From the NCBI RefSeq assembly GCF_000008565.1, contig NC_001263.1:2063533-2095532 (forward strand): 32,000 nucleotides of DNA. The letters run 5' to 3'. The notes below the pieces were generated by a model. It did not search any database, was not told the DNA's origin, and was given only the letters and a program-made list of their open reading frames with translations. A program made the position numbers and the translations under genes. This stretch comes from Deinococcus radiodurans R1 = ATCC 13939 = DSM 20539 (GTDB lineage: Bacteria; Deinococcota; Deinococci; Deinococcales; Deinococcaceae). This document shows, in pieces, positions 5,461 through 29,182 of this stretch; positions within the stretch are counted from its first letter, which is position 1, and the number at the start of each line of letters is the position of its first letter.

Positions 5461-7246
5461 ATGTCACAACCGACCGAAATGCCGCGCTGGCGCACCGACG
5501 ACCTGTACGCCGGGCTGGACGACGCCCGCTTCGACGCCGACCTGAGCAGCCTGGGAGAGCAGGTCCGCGACCTGGGGGAACTGTTCGACCAGAACGGCAT
5601 TCGCCAGGGTGGGGCGCCCCTCTCGGCGGAGGTGCTCGCGCAGGCCATTGACGCCATGAACAGCACCTTCCGGCAACTCGGCGAGCTGCGGGCGTACATC
5701 AACGCCTTTACGTCCACCGACAGCCGCAACGCCGCCGCGCAGCAGCGCATGGGCGAGCTGACCACGCTGGCGCTGCCGCTCTCGCCCTGCGTCGCGCCTG
5801 ACCGCGTGGCTGGGCAGCGCCGAGGAAGGGCAACTTCACGACGTGCTGGGCAGCTCCGAGCTGGTGCGCGACCACGAGTATTTCGTGCGCCGCGCCGCCG
5901 AGTACGCCCGGCACCAGATGACGCCGCCCGAAGAAGACCTCGCCGCGCAGTTGCGGCCCAGCGGCGCGGGCGGCTGGGGCAAGCTGCACGGCAACTTCAC
6001 CAGCCAGTTGCGCGGCGAGTACCGGGGCGAACTTCTGCCCGTCACGGCGCTGCGGGCATTGGCGACCGAGCCGGACGAAGCGGTGCGCCGCGACGCTTTT
6101 GAGGCCGAGCTGAAGGTCTGGCGGGAGAGCGACACCGTGACGGCGGCGTGCATGAACGGCGTGAAGGGCGAAGAAGGCACCCTGGCCCGGCGCCGGGGCT
6201 TTGCCGAGCCGCTCGACGTGAGCCTGCTCAACAACGGCATTGACCGCGCCACACTGGACGCCATGCAAGGCGCGGTGGTGCGCTCGCTGCCCGATTTCCG
6301 CCGCTACTTCGCGGCCAAAGCGCGGGCACTGGGCAAACAGAAGCTCGACTGGTGGGACCTGTTCGCGCCGGTCGGAGAAACCTCTACAGAATGGACCTAC
6401 GAAGCCGGCAGCGAGTTCGTGGAGCGGCAGTTCCGGGGCTACTCGGACAAACTCGGTGACTTTGCCGCCCGCGCCTTTGCCGGGGACTGGGTGGACGCCG
6501 GCCCGCGCGACGGCAAGCGCGGCGGGGCCTTTTGCATGGGCTGGCAGGGCGACGCGAGCCGCATTCTGATGAACCACAGCCCCAGCCTCGACAGCGTGTC
6601 CACCCTGGCCCACGAACTCGGGCATGGCTACCACAACTTCGTCAAGGCCGGGCGCACCCCGCTGCAAAAAGAAACGCCGATGACGCTGGCCGAAACCGCC
6701 TCGATTTTCTGCGAAACGATCATCCAGAATGCGGCGCTGCAAACCGCGCAGGGCGCCGAGAAGCTCTACGTGCTCGAAACGCAGCTCCTGGGGCACGCGC
6801 AGGTCGTGGTGGACATCCACAGCCGCTTCCTGTTCGAGCGCGCGGTCTTCGAAAAGCGGGCCGAGCGCGACCTGACCCCCCACGAACTATGCGAGCTGAT
6901 GACGCAGGCCCAGCGCGAGAGCTACGGCGACGCGCTCGCCACGCTGCACCCCTACATGTGGGCCGTCAAGCCGCACTACTACGGCTCGACTTTTTACAAC
7001 TACCCCTACACCTTCGGGCTGCTGTTCGGCCTCGGTCTGTACGCCCAGTACGAGCAGGCCCGCGCCGAGGGCAACGCCGCCGACTTCCAGCGCCGCTACG
7101 ACGAGCTGCTCTCCTCCACTGGGCTCGCCGACGCCCGCACGCTCGCGGCCCGCTTCGGCATCGACCTGCACGCGCCCGATTTCTGGGAAGGCAGCCTGAA
7201 CGTGATCCGCCGCCAGATTGATGAATACGAGCGCGCGGTGAGCTGA
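5461..7246 (+). pseudogene. pepF: Oligoendopeptidase F (M3B metallopeptidase) interrupted by a frameshift near 5785-5790
   Basis: The N-terminal part from ATG 5461 (MSQPTEMPRWRTDDLY...) is in frame 1. The remainder, including the zinc motif HELGHGYH, is in frame 2 (ORF 5843..7246). The frame-2 translation already reads SRLTAWLGSAEEGQL from about 5791. Removing one base of CCC 5785-5787 gives a single ORF of about 594 aa. Confidence 0.8.
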
Positions 7247-19209: not shown

Positions 19210-21387
<2,178 letters not shown>

Positions 21388-21521: not shown

Positions 21522-22628
21522 ATGAAAAAATTTGTAACCCTGGCCCTCACCCTGAGCACCCTCGGCGCTTCCGTCGCTTCGGCACAGGCCGTGCGCGTGG
21601 GGATGGCCTACGACGCCGGCGGCAAGGCCGACAAGAGCTTTAACCAGAGCGCCTACGAAGGCAGCCAGCTTGCCGCCAAGAAGCTCGGCATTCAGGTCAA
21701 GGACTTTGAGCCCAGCGACCCCAGCCAGATCATCCAGGGCGTGCGCTCCTTTGCCAAGGAAGGCTTTGACCTGACCATCGGCGTGGGCTTTTCCAACAAC
21801 GCCAGCATCACCCAGGTCGCCAAGGAAAACCCCGACCTGTACTTCGGTCTGGTGGACGACGTGAGCACCGCCAAGAACGTCGCCAGCCTGGTGTTCAACG
21901 AAGAGCAGGGCAGCTACCTCGTGGGCTACCTCGCCGCCATGAACTCCTCGACGGGCGTGGTGGGCTTTATCGGCGGCATGAACATTCCGCTGATCCACAA
22001 GTTCGAAGCCGGCTACCGCGCGGGCGTGAAGGCCGCCAACCCCAAGGCCACCATCATCTCGCAGTACGTGGGCAACACCCCCGAAGCCTGGAACAACCCC
22101 GGCAAGGCCAAGGAAATCGCCGCCAACATGCGTGGGCGCGGCGCCGACATCATCTTCGCGGCGGCGGGCGGCTCCGGCAACGGCCTGATCGATTACATCA
22201 AACAGACCCCCTGCCTCAACGCCTCTCAGCTTCCCAAGGGCGTGACCTTCAAGTCCGACAACTTCAAGAACGTCAAGAAGAGCGCCGCCTATGCCAAGGC
22301 CTGCACGGGCAACACCCGCCCAATGTTCTTTATTGGCGTGGACAGCAACCAGAACTACCTCGGCGACTTCGACAAGAACCCCGCGACCCTCAACCACGGC
22401 CTGACCAGCATGGTCAAGCGGGTGGACAACGCGGTGTACGCCCTGATCAACGAAGTCAAGAACGACAAGTTCAAGGCCGGCGAGCGCCGCTTCGGCCTCA
22501 AGGACGGCGGCGTCGCCTACGCGGTGGACCAGTACAACAAGGCCCTGCTGCCCGCTGCCCAGATCGCCAAGGTCGAAGCTGTCAAGCAGCAGATCATCAA
22601 GGGCCAGATCAAGGTGCCGACCAAGTAA
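21522..22628 (+). CDS. BMP family ABC transporter substrate-binding protein (PnrA/Med-like)
   Basis: Signal peptide MKKFVTLALTLSTLGASVASAQA. AGGAG at 21512-21516. BMP-type motif DKSFNQSAYEG. Confidence 0.85.
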   Translation: MKKFVTLALTLSTLGASVASAQAVRVGMAYDAGGKADKSFNQSAYEGSQLAAKKLGIQVKDFEPSDPSQIIQGVRSFAKEGFDLTIGVGFSNNASITQVAKENPDLYFGLVDDVSTAKNVASLVFNEEQGSYLVGYLAAMNSSTGVVGFIGGMNIPLIHKFEAGYRAGVKAANPKATIISQYVGNTPEAWNNPGKAKEIAANMRGRGADIIFAAAGGSGNGLIDYIKQTPCLNASQLPKGVTFKSDNFKNVKKSAAYAKACTGNTRPMFFIGVDSNQNYLGDFDKNPATLNHGLTSMVKRVDNAVYALINEVKNDKFKAGERRFGLKDGGVAYAVDQYNKALLPAAQIAKVEAVKQQIIKGQIKVPTK

Positions 22629-22645
22629 GCTCAACCTCTTAAGAG

Positions 22646-22670
22646 CCGCTCCTTCGGGGGCGGTTTTTTT
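22646..22670 (+). terminator. Rho-independent terminator after the BMP gene
   Basis: Stem CCGCTCC / GGGGCGG with a TTCG tetraloop, followed by TTTTTTT. Confidence 0.7.
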
Positions 22671-22686
22671 GGTGCCGTGAACACAG

Positions 22687-22719
22687 AAAAGGCCCAGCAT
22701 CCTCAAAGGACACCGGGCC
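22687..22719 (-). terminator. Rho-independent terminator after glmM
   Basis: Minus-strand hairpin GGCCCGGTGTCCT-TTG-AGGATGCTGGGCC (about 13 bp including wobble pairs), followed by TTTT. Confidence 0.6.
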
Positions 22720-22735
22720 AGTCAGCGAGCAAAGC

Positions 22736-24070
<1,335 letters not shown>

Positions 24071-24142
24071 ATCCTCGCCATGATACGTCGGTGAGTGCCG
24101 TGTGTACGAGGCTCAAGATGGGGATGACTGACTACGAGGCCG

Positions 24143-25225
24143 TCAGGCGAGGCCGAGAAACGCCCGGTACCGCCCCAACTCTTTCTCCACCCCCGATGCC
24201 AAAGTCTTCGTTTGCCGAACGCCGGGCAGGAAGTGTAGGTCGGCCTTCAGCTCACCGCCCTCTCCCTTCAGATTGGCCCACCCCACCGCCTTTTCCCCGC
24301 TGAAGACCGGCAGCGCGTAGTACCCGAACTGCCGTTTCGCGGCGGGCGTATACGCCTCCAGCTTGTACGCCCAGCCGTGCAGGTGTTCAAAGCGGCGACG
24401 GTCCCACACCAGCGGGTCGAAGGGACCGACGATGCGGACGCCTCTGGGCGCGGGCACATCTTCAAGATTCCACTCGGCGGGCCACACGTAGCGCACGCCG
24501 TCCACCACCGCGCCCGCCAGTTCTTCACGGGCCGCCCGCTTGAACGCCGCGCGCAGTTCGCCGTGCAGGTGCGGAAAGCCGAAGCGCGAGAGGGTGACGA
24601 GGTAGCCCAAACTCGCCTCGGGCAGCGGGCCGTACAGCGCAGCGAGCAGGTGCACCGCACCGCGCAGCCGCTCCGCATCAGGAAGGGGGTCGCGGCGCAA
24701 CTCGGCCAGATGGGGAGCCGGGCCGTAAAGCCGCACGCCGGACACCCGGCGGGTCACGCGGGCCTCGCCCCGGTAGTGCAGCGCGTCCAGGGCGCGAGTG
24801 GTGGCGCTGCTCTGGCCGCCCCAGGCGTTGCCGACGCGGCCCCGGCCAATCAAGGTGTCGGCCTCGCGGGGGTGGAGTTCTGCGCGCTCACGCAGCAGCC
24901 CCCGCACCTCGTCCAGAAGTTCCGGGTGCTCGCGCTCGATGCGGGTCACGCCGACCTCGCGCGGGTGCAGCAGCTTTTGCGTCTCACGCGGGAAAAAGCC
25001 GTAGTTGGGGAGCATGTCCTCTTCGGCGTCGAGCGCGGGGTAAAGGCGTTCGAGGTCGCCCGCGCGGTAGCCCCGCACCCGCCCCATCAGCGTCAAATCC
25101 TGCGCCCTGGCCGGGGCGCGGATGGGGTCGGCTTGCAGGAACCCGAGGGCGCTGAGCGCCGTTTGCACGTCCGGCTGCGGGGTGAGGGTACGGAAGGCGG
25201 CGGCGCGCAGGGTGGCGAGGTTCAT
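24143..25225 (-). CDS. YcaQ/AlkZ-like winged-helix (HTH_42) protein, putative crosslink-repair DNA glycosylase
   Basis: N-terminal LGFLQADPIRAP carries a Q-hydrophobic-D motif (Q31-A32-D33, nt 25127-25135). About 360 aa. The ATG overlaps the upstream stop (ATGA). Confidence 0.7.
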   Translation of the reverse strand: MNLATLRAAAFRTLTPQPDVQTALSALGFLQADPIRAPARAQDLTLMGRVRGYRAGDLERLYPALDAEEDMLPNYGFFPRETQKLLHPREVGVTRIEREHPELLDEVRGLLRERAELHPREADTLIGRGRVGNAWGGQSSATTRALDALHYRGEARVTRRVSGVRLYGPAPHLAELRRDPLPDAERLRGAVHLLAALYGPLPEASLGYLVTLSRFGFPHLHGELRAAFKRAAREELAGAVVDGVRYVWPAEWNLEDVPAPRGVRIVGPFDPLVWDRRRFEHLHGWAYKLEAYTPAAKRQFGYYALPVFSGEKAVGWANLKGEGGELKADLHFLPGVRQTKTLASGVEKELGRYRAFLGLA

Positions 25226-25800
25226 GGATGAGGGTTGCTGGACGACAGGGCGAGAGCTTCGGCGTGCCCCATGATGGCCCGCGCCGCTTCCTCCGGGGAA
25301 AGCCGCGAAGTGTCCAGCGTCAACATGCCTTCCGGCACAGGCAAGACGCCTTTGCTGTCCAGCACGGCCTGCAACGTGTCGGGGTCGGTCAACTTCAGGC
25401 GGGCACGGCGCTCCGGCAGCGGCATCCGGCGCCGCAGTTCTTCGGTGGGGCAGGTCAGGAAGACCGGGACGAAAGTGGCCCCCCGCTGCTCAGCCAGCGC
25501 CGCGAACTTGCCTATCATCTCGGCCTCACCGGGCAGGTCTGCCAGGTAGTTGGTGAAAATATGGCTGACCCCCGCCGGAGCCGCCGCCACCGCCTCCAGC
25601 AGCAGCGCCCGCAGGCGGCGGGTAAAAGACCAGACCTCGGCGGGCGGGTCGCCCTGGCCCGTGAAGCCGAACGCTGCGAACATCGGGTCATTGATGATGT
25701 GGTTGTCGAGCAGCGCCGCGCCGGTCAGCCGCGTGAGTTCCAGCCCCACGGTGCGTTTGCCGCTGCCGGGCGGCCCGATGAGATAGAAGAGACGGCTCAC
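25222..25800 (-). CDS. P-loop NTPase / kinase-like protein (AAA_33 or shikimate-kinase-like fold)
   Basis: Walker A GPPGSGKRT at residues 9-17. The GTG start overlaps the upstream stop (GTGA at 25797-25800). Confidence 0.65.
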   Translation of the reverse strand: MSRLFYLIGPPGSGKRTVGLELTRLTGAALLDNHIINDPMFAAFGFTGQGDPPAEVWSFTRRLRALLLEAVAAAPAGVSHIFTNYLADLPGEAEMIGKFAALAEQRGATFVPVFLTCPTEELRRRMPLPERRARLKLTDPDTLQAVLDSKGVLPVPEGMLTLDTSRLSPEEAARAIMGHAEALALSSSNPHP

Positions 25801-26369
25801 GGCGCGGCCAGCTCCATGCTCGGCTGCGCGGGCGACACCCAGCCGTTGCCCCGAATCAGAAAGCGCCAGGGCAGGTTGCGCCCTTCGCGGATGCCTACGC
25901 GGGCGGTGACGGTGACTTCATCGTCGGCCAGCGGAGTCTCCGGCGCGAGCAGGTGCAGTTCGGGGCTGTTCACCGGGCGGTGGCTGATCTGCATGGGGTC
26001 AAGGCCGAGCGCGTAGACCAGTTTCGCCGGGCCGCTCGTCAGGTCGCGCTGGCGGGTCACAGGGCGGTAATCGAGCATTTTGCCCGCCCCTTCCAGCGGC
26101 TCAAGCGCCCGGATCAGCACGCTGGCGCTCACCCCTTCCTGACGGCAGGCGACCTGCAACAGCGGGTGCCCGTGCGCGAACCAGAACAGCCAGTGACCGG
26201 GCGCAATCGCCATTTCCGCGCTGCGGGCGGCGTGAAAGCGCCCGGCGGTGCAGGCCGGGTCACGCGGGCAGTCGTAGGCTTCCACTTCCACCACTCGCCC
26301 GCTCAGGCGGTGGCCGTCCGGGGTTACGCGGACCAGCGTGCCTCCGAGCAGCTCGCGGGCAAGGCGCAC
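25797..26369 (-). CDS. mpg: DNA-3-methyladenine (methylpurine) glycosylase, AAG/MPG family; true start probably upstream of GTG 26369
   Basis: Matches: LARELLGG..LVR; catalytic-region VEVEAY; VLIRALEPLEG; SGPAKL; PWRF. The homologous N-terminal segment LNPAHFDANPV continues upstream of the GTG, up to the in-frame TGA at 26421-26423. Confidence 0.8.
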   Translation of the reverse strand: MRLARELLGGTLVRVTPDGHRLSGRVVEVEAYDCPRDPACTAGRFHAARSAEMAIAPGHWLFWFAHGHPLLQVACRQEGVSASVLIRALEPLEGAGKMLDYRPVTRQRDLTSGPAKLVYALGLDPMQISHRPVNSPELHLLAPETPLADDEVTVTARVGIREGRNLPWRFLIRGNGWVSPAQPSMELAAP

Positions 26370-26420
26370 CGGGTTGGCGTCGAAGTGGGCGGGATTTAGG
26401 GGTGGAAGCGGCGGCAGGAC

Positions 26421-26831
26421 TCAGCCCTCAGTGCTGGCGCCGGGGCGGGTGGTCCACTCGGGGGCGGGCTCAATCACGTCGGCGGGCGCTTTGCCGCGCT
26501 CCAGGCCGCTGTTTTGCTCGGTCTGCACCGGGCGCAGCGCCATGCCTTCCGCGCACTCGATCTGGCAGGAGAGCCGCGCCTCACCGAGCAGGCCCTTGTC
26601 CTGCAACTTGTCGTGTTCGGCCAGCGTCATGGCGTCGGGTTCGCCTTCCGTGAAGACCACCCGGCAGGTCGTGCATTTGGCGACGCCGCCGCAGCGGTGC
26701 AGGATGTCCACCCCGCCGCGCTCCAGTGCCGTGACCAGCCGCTCGCCCGAGTGGGCCTGAATCTCGCCGTAGCCCTCCACGGCAATGGTGACGGGCTGGC
26801 CTTGCTGCTGGGCAATCAGGGGTTCGGTCAT
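26421..26831 (-). CDS. 2Fe-2S ferredoxin-type protein
   Basis: Cys pattern C-x5-C-x2-C...C (RCGGVAKCTTCRV ... LSCQIEC) on a ferredoxin-size core. Confidence 0.75.
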   Translation of the reverse strand: MTEPLIAQQQGQPVTIAVEGYGEIQAHSGERLVTALERGGVDILHRCGGVAKCTTCRVVFTEGEPDAMTLAEHDKLQDKGLLGEARLSCQIECAEGMALRPVQTEQNSGLERGKAPADVIEPAPEWTTRPGASTEG

Positions 26832-26837
26832 GCGGTC

Positions 26838-26852
26838 AGGATACGGGATACT
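26838..26852. promoter_or_regulatory. Back-to-back -10 boxes for the divergent leaderless ferredoxin operon and the MBL gene
   Basis: Minus-strand TATCCT (26838-26843) lies 6 nt before ATG 26831. Plus-strand GATACT (26847-26852) lies 6 nt before ATG 26859. The intergenic region is only 27 bp. Confidence 0.45.
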
Positions 26853-26858
26853 CCGGGC

Positions 26859-27845
26859 ATGACCTCATCGTCCGCCGCTCCCCTCGTTCCGCTGCTGGGC
26901 AGCCTGCACGCGCTGCAAGTGCCGATTCCTTACCCCATGAAGACGGTCACGGTCCTGATCGACGCTCCGGCGCGCGGGCCACTGACCCTGATCGACTGCG
27001 CGCTCGACACCCCGGAGGCGCGCGCCGCCATCGAGGACGGGCTCGCGCAACTCGGGCGGCACTGGTCCGACATCGACCGCCTCATCGTGACGCACCACCA
27101 CCCCGACCATTACGGCCTCGCGGGCGTCATCGAGGAACGCAGCGGCGCGCGCGTGCAGATGCTCGACGTGGAAATCGGGCGCGGCGAGCGCTACTGGCAC
27201 ATGCTGAGCGAGTGGCTGCCGGGGCACCGCAAGCACATGCGCGACCACGGGCTGCCCGAGGCATCGGTGGAGGGCATCCGCGCCGAGAACCCGCGCGTGC
27301 ACCCCGCCAGCCGGGTGGAACCGCTGCGCGAGGGACAAAGCGTGTCGCTCGCCGGGCACGAGTGGGAAGTGCTGTGGCTCCCCGGTCACGCCGACGGGCA
27401 CCTCGGCCTGTGGAACGAGGAAGAAAGCCTGCTGATTGCCGGCGACGCCATCTTGCCGCGCATCAGTCCCAACATCGGCCTGTACGCCTACACCCGGCCC
27501 GACCCCCTCGGCGACTACCTGCAAACGCTGGGCAAGCTGGAAGCCCTGAACCCGCGCCGGGCCGTCGTCGGGCACCACGGGCCGGTCATGGAGGGCGTGC
27601 AGGCCCGCGCCCGTGAGCTGCGCGGGCACCACCACGAGCGGCTGGACTTTATCGGCGCCGAGGCTCGCCGTGAGGGCCGCAGCGCCTACGACCTGTCGCT
27701 GGCGATGTTTCCGCGCGACCTCGACGAAGGCGGGCGCCGCTTTGCTCTGGCCGAGACGCTCGCGCACCTCGAACACCTGCGGCTGCTCGGGCAACTCGCC
27801 CGCACCTGGGACGAGGGGGCGCAGGTGTGGCGGTATCACGCTTGA
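26859..27845 (+). CDS. MBL-fold metallo-hydrolase with a C-terminal winged-helix-like domain
   Basis: Motif VTHHHPDHYG plus downstream His/Asp ligands (LPGHADGH, GHHG). ATG 26859 was chosen because the upstream part of ORF 26514 is antisense to the ferredoxin gene. Confidence 0.85.
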   Translation: MTSSSAAPLVPLLGSLHALQVPIPYPMKTVTVLIDAPARGPLTLIDCALDTPEARAAIEDGLAQLGRHWSDIDRLIVTHHHPDHYGLAGVIEERSGARVQMLDVEIGRGERYWHMLSEWLPGHRKHMRDHGLPEASVEGIRAENPRVHPASRVEPLREGQSVSLAGHEWEVLWLPGHADGHLGLWNEEESLLIAGDAILPRISPNIGLYAYTRPDPLGDYLQTLGKLEALNPRRAVVGHHGPVMEGVQARARELRGHHHERLDFIGAEARREGRSAYDLSLAMFPRDLDEGGRRFALAETLAHLEHLRLLGQLARTWDEGAQVWRYHA

Positions 27846-27920
27846 GGTTCCCCAAAAGAACTGCCCCACTCTGCCCCATGAAATGGAGCCACTCTTCCCG
27901 AGCCCGGCGAGCAGGCCGTC

Positions 27921-27926
27921 TATACT
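27921..27926 (+). promoter_or_regulatory. -10 box (TATACT) 7 nt upstream of ATG 27934
   Basis: TATACT-CGCCCGC-ATG, with no Shine-Dalgarno sequence. Confidence 0.45.
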
Positions 27927-27933
27927 CGCCCGC

Positions 27934-28392
27934 ATGACGGCATCCCAGACCGAGCTGCGGCGCATCATGGCCGCGCTGCAAGAACGTGGCCTGACCGTCG
28001 AGGCGGTGGAAGACGGCGCGCTGGTGCAAGACGGCGACGCCCGCGTGGCGCTGTTTGCCGAGGCCGACCACCGCGGCGGCGTGCTGGTGCGGCTGCACCT
28101 CGACCTTGACCTGTACGTCGAGGAAGACTCGCTGCCCGACATCCTGATGGGCATGAATCTGCTCAACCAGGGCCTGGACTACGGCGCCCTGATTCTCGAC
28201 CCCCTCGACCCCGAGGATGCCGACGAAGAAGCGCCCATCGCTTTCGCCGTACTGGGGCGCAGCGTGCTGTGGCTGCCCGACCTCGGCCCCGAGGAGCTCG
28301 GGCGGCTGCGCGAGCACCTGCGCCGCTTCGAGCAGGAAGTCACCGAAACGGTGGAGCGCACCCTGCACGGCGGCAGCGGCATCAGCGCCTGA
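27934..28392 (+). CDS. Hypothetical acidic protein (possibly YbjN-like; weak)
   Basis: 152-aa ORF with high GC3. Start chosen at MTASQTELRR, behind the -10 box. The family call is tentative. Confidence 0.55.
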   Translation: MTASQTELRRIMAALQERGLTVEAVEDGALVQDGDARVALFAEADHRGGVLVRLHLDLDLYVEEDSLPDILMGMNLLNQGLDYGALILDPLDPEDADEEAPIAFAVLGRSVLWLPDLGPEELGRLREHLRRFEQEVTETVERTLHGGSGISA

Positions 28393-28411
28393 GCAGGAGA
28401 GAAACAGCAAG

Positions 28412-28446
28412 GGGCCACTTCCCGGCGAAGGAAGTGGCCCTCTTTT
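28412..28446. terminator. Bidirectional rho-independent terminator
   Basis: 11-bp stem GGGCCACTTCC / GGAAGTGGCCC with a 7-nt loop, followed by TCTTTT. It lies between convergent genes. Confidence 0.75.
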
Positions 28447-28468
28447 CAGTTTGGGTCGTCAGTGCGGG

Positions 28469-29182
28469 TCAGCGGCCAATAAAGTCGCGCACCTGGGTGT
28501 AGACGGTGGCGTCACCGTACAGGCTCGAGTGGGTCAGGCAGGAGGTCTTAGTATTGGTGGCTCCGCTGAGCGGCACGCTGCTGTTGGGGTTGATGACCGC
28601 GTCGCAGGGCGACCACCAGGTGGCGTAGCGGACCGCGCCGGGCGTTTCGTCGCCGCTGTTGAGCGCTTTGATGAACGACGAGCCCTGGCGCATCTCAATG
28701 CAGGAGGCGGTGGAGCAGGCCAGCGCAAAATCGGTGCCGTGGTTGGGGCCGCCGAGCGACACCCAGGCGTCCACTTTGGCGGTGCCGCCGAGGTTCTTGA
28801 GGTAGTAGCGGCTGGAGAGCGCGCCCATCGAGTGCGACACGATGTCCACTTGCGCCGCGCCGGTCTGCGCCAGGATCGCGTCCACCTTCTGCCGCAGCAG
28901 GTCGGCAGTCACGGCGTTGGACTTGAAGCTGTCATACGACCAGCTGAACAGCTGCGCGTCGGTCCAGCCGTCCTGCTTGAAGCGGTTCATCATCGGGCTC
29001 CAGATGGAGCCATCCGAGTTGAAACCGTGCACGAACAGTACCGGATGCCGCACCGGCGCGGCAAGGGCCTGGGCCGACAGCTCGGACGGAGCCTGGGTCA
29101 GGGTGCCACAGCCCGCCAGCAGCGCCGCCGAGAGCGGCAACAGGACGAAACGTTTGGAAAAAGCCAGGAAAGGGACAGTCAT
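28469..29182 (-). CDS. Lipoprotein triacylglycerol lipase / esterase (Lipase_2, Bacillus LipA-like alpha/beta hydrolase)
   Basis: Lipobox LLAGC. PVLFVHGF, nucleophile elbow SHSMGA, LGGPNHGT. Confidence 0.8.
   Translation of the reverse strand: MTVPFLAFSKRFVLLPLSAALLAGCGTLTQAPSELSAQALAAPVRHPVLFVHGFNSDGSIWSPMMNRFKQDGWTDAQLFSWSYDSFKSNAVTADLLRQKVDAILAQTGAAQVDIVSHSMGALSSRYYLKNLGGTAKVDAWVSLGGPNHGTDFALACSTASCIEMRQGSSFIKALNSGDETPGAVRYATWWSPCDAVINPNSSVPLSGATNTKTSCLTHSSLYGDATVYTQVRDFIGR

Follow-up and report, generated by a model that had tools for sequence, protein, structure and literature searches.

A lineage-specific four-gene cluster of Deinococcus radiodurans, probably assembled around an older pair of predicted DNA glycosylase genes

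In a 32,000-nucleotide stretch of chromosome 1 of Deinococcus radiodurans R1 (NC_001263.1, positions 2,063,533 to 2,095,532; hereafter the window, whose numbering is used throughout), four consecutive minus-strand genes encode a 2Fe-2S ferredoxin-type protein (Fer2), a glycosylase of the AAG/MPG family (MPG), a P-loop protein with a nucleoside monophosphate (NMP)-kinase fold (Kin) and a YcaQ-like glycosylase of the AlkZ-like/HTH_42 family (AlkZL). A preliminary description of this DNA had proposed that the four form a dedicated alkylation and crosslink repair module. The four-gene arrangement is lineage-specific rather than a repair machine of four conserved parts. We consider it rather probable that it represents a compact, co-transcribed and translationally coupled cluster, which recent rearrangement in this lineage built up around a glycosylase pair that is older and inherited within the clade. 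What is directly observed under this reading is which families the proteins belong to, their motifs, how the genes join and which lineages share the adjacency.

The genes lie on the minus strand at 26421-26831 (Fer2, DR_2075, 136 residues), 25797-26417 (MPG, DR_2074 or 'AlkA1', 206 residues if translated from a CTG at 26417), 25222-25800 (the P-loop protein, DR_2073, 192 residues, a member of an uncharacterised family) and 24143-25225 (AlkZL, DR_2072, 360 residues). The tag DR_2074 was taken from the literature and the others were assigned by position. Both the coordinates and the sequence agree with the tight packing that had been reported, the MPG/P-loop junction being GTGA (25800-25797) and the P-loop/AlkZL junction ATGA (25225-25222). 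Since 4-nt overlaps are the commonest junction type in bacterial operons, those found here are not unusual in themselves. Every motif that had been quoted (VEVEAY, ALEPLEG, PWRF, GPPGSGKRT, LQADP and C-x5-C-x2-C...C) was present, and the four family assignments were borne out by Pfam matches to Fer2, Pur_DNA_glyco, AlkZ-like and, marginally, AAA_33. Several D. radiodurans assemblies share the gene order and an identical P-loop protein. The co-directional run extends past 24143, as glmM (phosphoglucosamine mutase, DR_2071; 22736-24070, minus strand; Pfam PGM_PMM I-IV) begins 72 nt further on.

Among the 12 Deinococcus lineages sampled, MPG lies beside AlkZL in seven, Fer2 upstream of MPG in four and the P-loop gene in two, and the exact four-gene set is confined to D. 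radiodurans, with the order Fer2-MPG-Kin-AlkZL-glmM. The closest sampled relative, L140 (AlkZL 89% identical), carries Fer2-MPG-AlkZL and no kinase gene. Deinococcus sp. VB142 (85%) has a five-gene version, Fer2-MPG-secreted protein-Kin-AlkZL, and D. reticulitermitis (79%) has Fer2-MPG-MPG-AlkZL with all genes overlapping. MPG-AlkZL is the arrangement in D. terrestris (78%) and D. geothermalis (75%), and MPG-MPG-AlkZL that in Leaf326 (76%); D. metalli, L058, D. deserti, D. grandis and D. maricopensis (60-74%) have AlkZL with no MPG beside it. In six of the seven lineages having the pair the MPG-AlkZL junction is tight, from a 4-nt overlap to 76 nt. Outside the genus, neither MPG, the kinase, Fer2 nor GlmM was found near any of 79 metagenomic AlkZ-like loci (42-49% identity), 66 of which are covered for 600 nt or more upstream. 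The same gene set did not recur in phylogenetically distant genomes, as judged from the 12 lineages together with these 79 loci. The expectation that the adjacency would reach beyond one strain thus held for the MPG/AlkZL pair, but not for the full set. On the reading that we favour, the pair would have been inherited within one Deinococcus subclade, and only the radiodurans/VB142 lineage would have acquired the P-loop gene between the members of the pair. The secreted protein of the VB142 lineage (L051 5469-5957; L052 1551-2156), which stands between MPG and the P-loop gene, is a 201-residue signal-peptide protein with no Pfam match.

The same comparison bears on the possibility that the cluster is purely fortuitous, the four genes being functionally unrelated, the pair simply inherited synteny, and the compaction a product of intergenic deletion in a streamlined region. 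The most constant neighbours of AlkZL are, indeed, an unrelated convergent APH-family gene, found nearby in 10 of the 11 lineages besides D. radiodurans (all but L058 were examined for it), and glmM, downstream in 10 of 12. D. deserti and D. metalli each possess an MPG ortholog, in neither case beside AlkZL; that of D. deserti follows an ABC (ATP-binding cassette) transporter in a different gene context, the examined MPG and AlkZ-like stretches being non-overlapping. The YcaQ-like genes of Streptomyces also have invariant but functionally unconnected neighbours (PMC9040887), and E. coli ycaQ sits within the msbA-lpxK operon (PMC7367128). Nevertheless, both glycosylase families act on alkylated purines, and the junction between their genes has stayed tight in six of seven lineages despite turnover around it that includes tandem duplication of MPG. 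We regard a purely fortuitous origin as unlikely.

By every sequence criterion, DR_2072 is a member of the YcaQ-like (YQL) branch. As had been predicted for ORF 24143-25225, a profile search placed it in HTH_42, with a full-length match to AlkZ-like (PF06224; 1.6e-48, 166.5 bits against a gathering cut-off of 25.9) in which residues 25-356 span positions 2-329 of the 329-position profile. A Q-hydrophobic-D motif marks YcaQ-like proteins, and Q-hydrophobic-Q or H-hydrophobic-Q the AlkZ-like branch (PMC7367128, PMC9040887); mutation of Q45/D47 abolishes the activity of YcaQ (PMC7367128). When DR_2072 is aligned with E. coli YcaQ (27% identity, E 8e-22), LQADPI lies opposite LQIDTI and Q31/D33 correspond to Q45/D47. 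The Q31-A32-D33 triplet is invariant across 28 orthologs, in support of the YcaQ-like classification given in the preliminary description. PDB entry 9zd6 also matches DR_2072 at 3e-16. Acting through Q-A-D, the enzyme would be expected to excise N7-alkylguanine and to unhook N7-linked interstrand crosslinks.

DR_2072 also resembles E. coli YcaQ in lying outside any biosynthetic gene cluster, among housekeeping genes that include one for the cell envelope (glmM here, msbA/lpxK for ycaQ); polyketide synthase (PKS), nonribosomal peptide synthetase (NRPS) and other biosynthetic Pfam families were absent within about 6 kb on either side, a statement confined to the local neighbourhood. It differs in being 50 residues shorter and in having non-homologous neighbours. 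In E. coli K-12 (L143, 964000-971000), ycaQ follows ycaI (a member of the metallo-beta-lactamase, MBL, superfamily), msbA and lpxK, which encodes a P-loop kinase; LpxK shows no similarity to our P-loop protein, and we treat the parallel as coincidence. Another precedent is lhr-nei2 of mycobacteria, where a protein with an AlkZ-like fold is likewise operonic with a second DNA glycosylase and linked to crosslink resistance (PMC9841417). There, however, a helicase carries the AlkZ-like module as its C-terminal domain, and the partner is a Nei-family glycosylase, whereas the Deinococcus cluster combines a stand-alone YcaQ-like enzyme with MPG. The invariant neighbourhood of Streptomyces YQL genes described by Bradley et al. 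contains no MPG (PMC9040887).

The second glycosylase, DR_2074, belongs to the MPG family, as the preliminary description had held for ORF 25797-26369: it matches Pfam Pur_DNA_glyco (PF02245) over the whole domain at 1.6e-45 (155.2 bits against a cut-off of 27). It narrowly passes the TIGR00567 subfamily cut-off (120.6 against 116.35 bits) and falls below those of all five NCBIfam PRK00802 equivalog models (e.g. 122 against 182). VEVEAY and LIRALEP align with VETEAY and LLRALEP of human AAG, retaining E125, Y127 and R182, so that the Glu-Ala-Tyr and the Arg of LIRALEP are shared with human AAG and bacterial MPG. In human AAG, Y162 is the intercalating (wedge) tyrosine, and Y159, H136 and N169 are pocket residues. 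The Deinococcus clade differs at precisely these pocket and wedge positions, with Y159 replaced by W, Y162 by H along with a one-residue deletion, H136 by T and N169 by Q. Its segment PGHWLFW(F/T)AHG-HPLLQV (L051, L054, L055, L138, L140, L141) contrasts with the typical MPG/AAG pattern xGxxYvYxxYGmHxCxN, and the MPG of Flexivirga retains Y..Y..N at the corresponding positions. By homology, both glycosylases would be monofunctional alkylpurine enzymes, MPG probably using the conserved Glu of VEVEAY for catalysis, and the abasic sites produced by either would pass to general base excision repair. DR_2074 has been listed as 'AlkA1', a 3-methyladenine glycosylase whose activity was never measured (PMC5128194).

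The start of MPG deserves revision. It had been noted that 51 in-frame nucleotides separate the first two ORFs; this length, from the Fer2 stop (TGA, 26423-26421) to a GTG at 26369, is right, but the stretch is probably coding and specifies the N-terminus of MPG. Translated, it reads LPPLPPLNPAHFDANP (..LNPAHFDANP) and lines up with the N-terminal sequence that MPG orthologs conserve (PAHF/PAFF..DPV); the alignment with human AAG, chains of which match at 6e-22, also begins within it. The minimal ORF with a canonical start, 26369-25797 on the minus strand, would give 190 residues, most orthologs having 200-225 and retaining the N-terminal extension. The stretch contains no ATG, GTG or TTG, and other annotations start MPG at CTG 26417; the Fer2 stop lies 3 nt before this codon, and a Shine-Dalgarno-like GAGGG within the end of Fer2 (26425-26429, minus strand) 7 nt before it. 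With this putative ribosome-binding sequence before it, CTG 26417 is the likely start. The string GAGGGCTGAGTCCTG is identical in L140, where an 81-nt in-frame stretch free of stops follows; compared with 51 nt, this amounts to an in-frame indel, as expected of coding sequence.

A mis-set start for DR_2074, non-canonical and directly after the ferredoxin stop, may explain why recombinant expression of the protein ('drAlkA1') was reported to have failed (PMC5128194). Fer2 and MPG share a reading frame in D. radiodurans and L140. They do not in VB142 or D. reticulitermitis, and because the shared frame is not conserved we rejected TGA readthrough into a Fer2-MPG fusion.

The ferredoxin-type protein matches Pfam Fer2 (PF00111) at 1.6e-9 (38 bits against a cut-off of 21) and remains far under the cut-offs of all NCBIfam ferredoxin equivalogs. 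Its cysteines are Cys47, 53, 56, 89 and 93, the first four spaced C47-x5-C53-x2-C56-x32-C89. A divergent gene for an MBL-fold hydrolase (26859-27845, plus strand; Pfam Lactamase_B, 4.7e-28, and B_lactamase-like_C) is syntenic with Fer2 in VB142, L140 and D. reticulitermitis. The ferredoxin gene arrived together with a lipase/MBL block. The proposal that it supplies a redox input fares poorly, there being no tie to the glycosylases in sequence or context; to our knowledge, neither glycosylase family uses an Fe-S cluster. In one further D. radiodurans assembly, CP094462 (L003 4971-5405), Fer2 has 144 residues and an altered C-terminus, probably owing to a frameshift or an assembly difference.

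The P-loop protein carries its Walker A motif, GPPGSGKRT, at the N-terminus and matches AAA_33 only marginally (2e-6, 28.6 bits against a cut-off of 27), AAA_18 staying under its cut-off. Its AlphaFold model (pLDDT, the predicted local distance difference test, 93) was best matched by Foldseek to gluconate/sugar, adenosine 5'-phosphosulfate (APS) and shikimate kinases and to the putative kinase 2rhm, with probability 1.0, template modelling (TM) scores of up to 0.68/0.72 and 13-23% identity. It shares the fold and the Walker A motif with gluconokinase-like 4eun/3t61, the shikimate kinases, APS kinase 7yq1 and 2rhm, but none of the substrate-binding motifs of these small-molecule kinases could be assigned in it; the family's own invariant residues are D32-N33-H34 and R131/K136. 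The tRNA kinase PSTK appeared at ranks 34-37 with TM-scores similar to the others, and sequence matches in the PDB were to shikimate and adenylate kinases through Walker A only. No polynucleotide kinase was among the top 50 Foldseek matches, although substrates cannot be told apart by fold. With an isoelectric point (pI) of 6.1 the protein is slightly acidic, and no consistent basic charge runs across the family.

Most members of this family (452 clusters at E<=1e-30) are stand-alone proteins of about 190 residues. Fusions are rare, comprising a flavodoxin-like FMN (flavin mononucleotide) reductase, a CxxCxxCC metal-binding domain and a self-duplication (P0406, P0419 and P0392 of our representative library), and were too sparse to interpret as a functional clue. 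Fourteen other Deinococcus species carry the P-loop gene, frequently duplicated in tandem, in unrelated surroundings. When 73 genes flanking 41 P-loop loci were scanned against Pfam, MoxR/VWA, S33 hydrolase, OsmC, acylphosphatase, DUF2164 and DinB_2 families appeared but no glycosylases; with neither glycosylase nor repair enrichment around these loci, we rejected the idea that the kinase family as a whole is connected with DNA repair. Tandem diverged paralogs typically lie beside S33 hydrolase or OsmC genes (L009, L011, L013, L018, L020; ~6001-7130). The polynucleotide-kinase-like role suggested for DR_2073 consequently found no specific support, given the small-molecule kinase folds, the pI and the non-repair neighbours elsewhere.

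A different context is found in Flexivirga. In three genomes (L021-L023, ~6001-7135) the order is argH-Kin-MPG-tyrS, the P-loop gene overlapping MPG by 14 nt and also overlapping the argH stop. This kinase/MPG overlap is the only evidence that the P-loop protein may be more than a passenger, and it raises the possibility of a specific accessory of MPG-type glycosylases, such as a regulator, or a kinase with a product or cofactor as its substrate, whose adjacency was selected independently of AlkZL. The juxtaposition would then have arisen twice, in opposite orders and with overlapping frames (MPG-Kin through GTGA in D. radiodurans, Kin-MPG through 14 nt in Flexivirga); the two MPGs are just 33-35% identical and each stands in its own lineage context, which points to independent events. 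A second adjacency among some 20 independent contexts has a rough chance probability of about 0.01, a statistic that is post hoc. On the other hand, some 38 other loci of the family have neither MPG nor another repair gene nearby, the VB142 kinase gene is set apart from MPG by one gene and overlaps AlkZL instead, and L140 has no kinase gene. An MPG accessory is conceivable, yet we would not expect it to prove correct. We find it decidedly doubtful that an MPG with a remodelled pocket and a YcaQ-like unhooking enzyme make up a co-evolved two-glycosylase unit in Deinococcus, and that the P-loop family is a new accessory of MPG-type glycosylases which D. radiodurans and Flexivirga each recruited on their own.

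The four-component module goes furthest, with the glycosylases making abasic sites, the P-loop protein processing ends or acting as a regulator, and the ferredoxin providing a redox signal. It can draw on the tight overlaps at the D. radiodurans junctions, on the presence of the same genes in the same order in VB142 and on the AAA_33 match, as this Pfam family also includes polynucleotide kinase domains. The comparative data speak against it: the kinase gene is present in two and Fer2 in four of the 12 lineages, L140 having no kinase gene; in VB142 the unrelated secreted-protein gene intervenes between MPG and the kinase; and none of the partners accompanies AlkZL at the 79 loci outside the genus. 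Neither the fold matches nor the charge of the P-loop protein points to a polynucleotide kinase, and the apparent dispensability of Fe-S clusters to both glycosylase families offers the ferredoxin no obvious part. We judge such a module very improbable. What survives of it is the pairing of MPG with a YcaQ-like enzyme within the clade, but not the kinase and ferredoxin, which are not conserved partners. On the reading of a recent assembly around that pair, the latter two would be passengers and not pathway components, the ferredoxin gene having presumably been brought in with the adjacent lipase/MBL block.

The four genes are very probably co-transcribed and translationally coupled, judging from their shared strand, the 4-nt overlaps and the absence of a terminator-like site within the cluster, where just one weak 5-bp stem was seen. 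The sole terminator-like site on the minus strand downstream of Fer2 is a hairpin after glmM (22691-22719; 13-bp stem with 8 GC pairs and a T-rich tail), terminator-like sites being no more frequent than expected from shuffled sequence. A -10-like box that ends 6 nt before an ATG is the layout expected for leaderless mRNAs. Such a hexamer, TATCCT (26838-26843, minus strand), ends 6 nt before the Fer2 ATG, for which reason transcription probably starts at that ATG from a candidate leaderless-type promoter. The ATG of the divergent MBL gene is 27 nt away, and the -10-like boxes stand back-to-back between the two; the mirror box, GATACT (26847-26852, plus strand), ends 6 nt upstream of the MBL ATG and would serve that gene. 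A scan of 22500-28500 for the sigma-70 two-hexamer consensus detected no promoter-like site. Translation could then be handed on by termination-reinitiation at the TGA-CTG, GTGA and ATGA junctions. This promoter, the CTG start, reinitiation, the enzyme substrates and the passenger status of ferredoxin and kinase are the parts of our favoured reading that we infer.

A separate promoter-like element precedes glmM (TACACACGGCACTCA ... TATCAT, 24080-24106, minus strand). In eight Deinococcus species, TAT(G/C)AT is invariant and TACACACG.CACTCA largely conserved, and this conservation implies that glmM has a promoter of its own and does not depend on the upstream genes. When DdrO was depleted for 16 h, DR2072, labelled 'hypothetical protein', was down 3.8-fold (PMC12934235, Table 4), and its neighbours are absent from the 50 genes listed there.

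Several points weigh against a recent assembly around an inherited pair. The recently inserted kinase gene has exact 4-nt overlaps at both of its ends, and Flexivirga has another kinase/MPG pair with overlapping frames, which gives some reason to doubt that the kinase is only a passenger. The seven lineages may have kept MPG and AlkZL closely joined because co-expression was selected for, rather than through simple inheritance. We infer co-transcription from the overlaps alone. The lesion pocket of the MPG clade is altered, and its substrates cannot be read from human AAG. Finally, the 12 lineages are a limited sample, picked by AlkZ-like identity and not from a species tree.

Reviews and screens of base excision repair in D. 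radiodurans include DR_2074 as 'AlkA1' and no YcaQ-type glycosylase (PMC5128194; 10.64898/2026.06.04.729788; PMC12934235), and DR2072 is still a 'hypothetical protein' in the searchable Deinococcus literature (PMC12934235). Neither an MPG/YcaQ-like pairing nor any Deinococcus YcaQ-like enzyme was found described there, and a literature search for DR_2071, DR_2073, DR_2075 and DR_2076 yielded nothing relevant. As a predicted YcaQ-like protein, DR_2072 provides a candidate interstrand-crosslink unhooking activity in a model of extreme DNA-damage tolerance. Neighbourhood analyses of YcaQ beyond Streptomyces have been called for (PMC9040887, PMC11228520). Our data provide an answer at the level of one clade, in which the YcaQ-like gene is paired with MPG, and kinase and ferredoxin are not conserved partners.

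An anti-phage defence system was rejected, as PADLOC returned zero matches for six proteins. At 24071-24142, D. radiodurans has lost an APH-family kinase gene and a small gene relative to the other examined Deinococcus (L051, L054, L056, L138-L142), where the two separate AlkZL from glmM. Two genes from glmM lies ligA (NAD-dependent DNA ligase, 19210-21312) in D. radiodurans, and polA (DNA polymerase I) follows glmM in D. geothermalis, D. deserti and D. metalli (L054, L056, L139), which makes the neighbourhood loosely rich in base excision repair functions.

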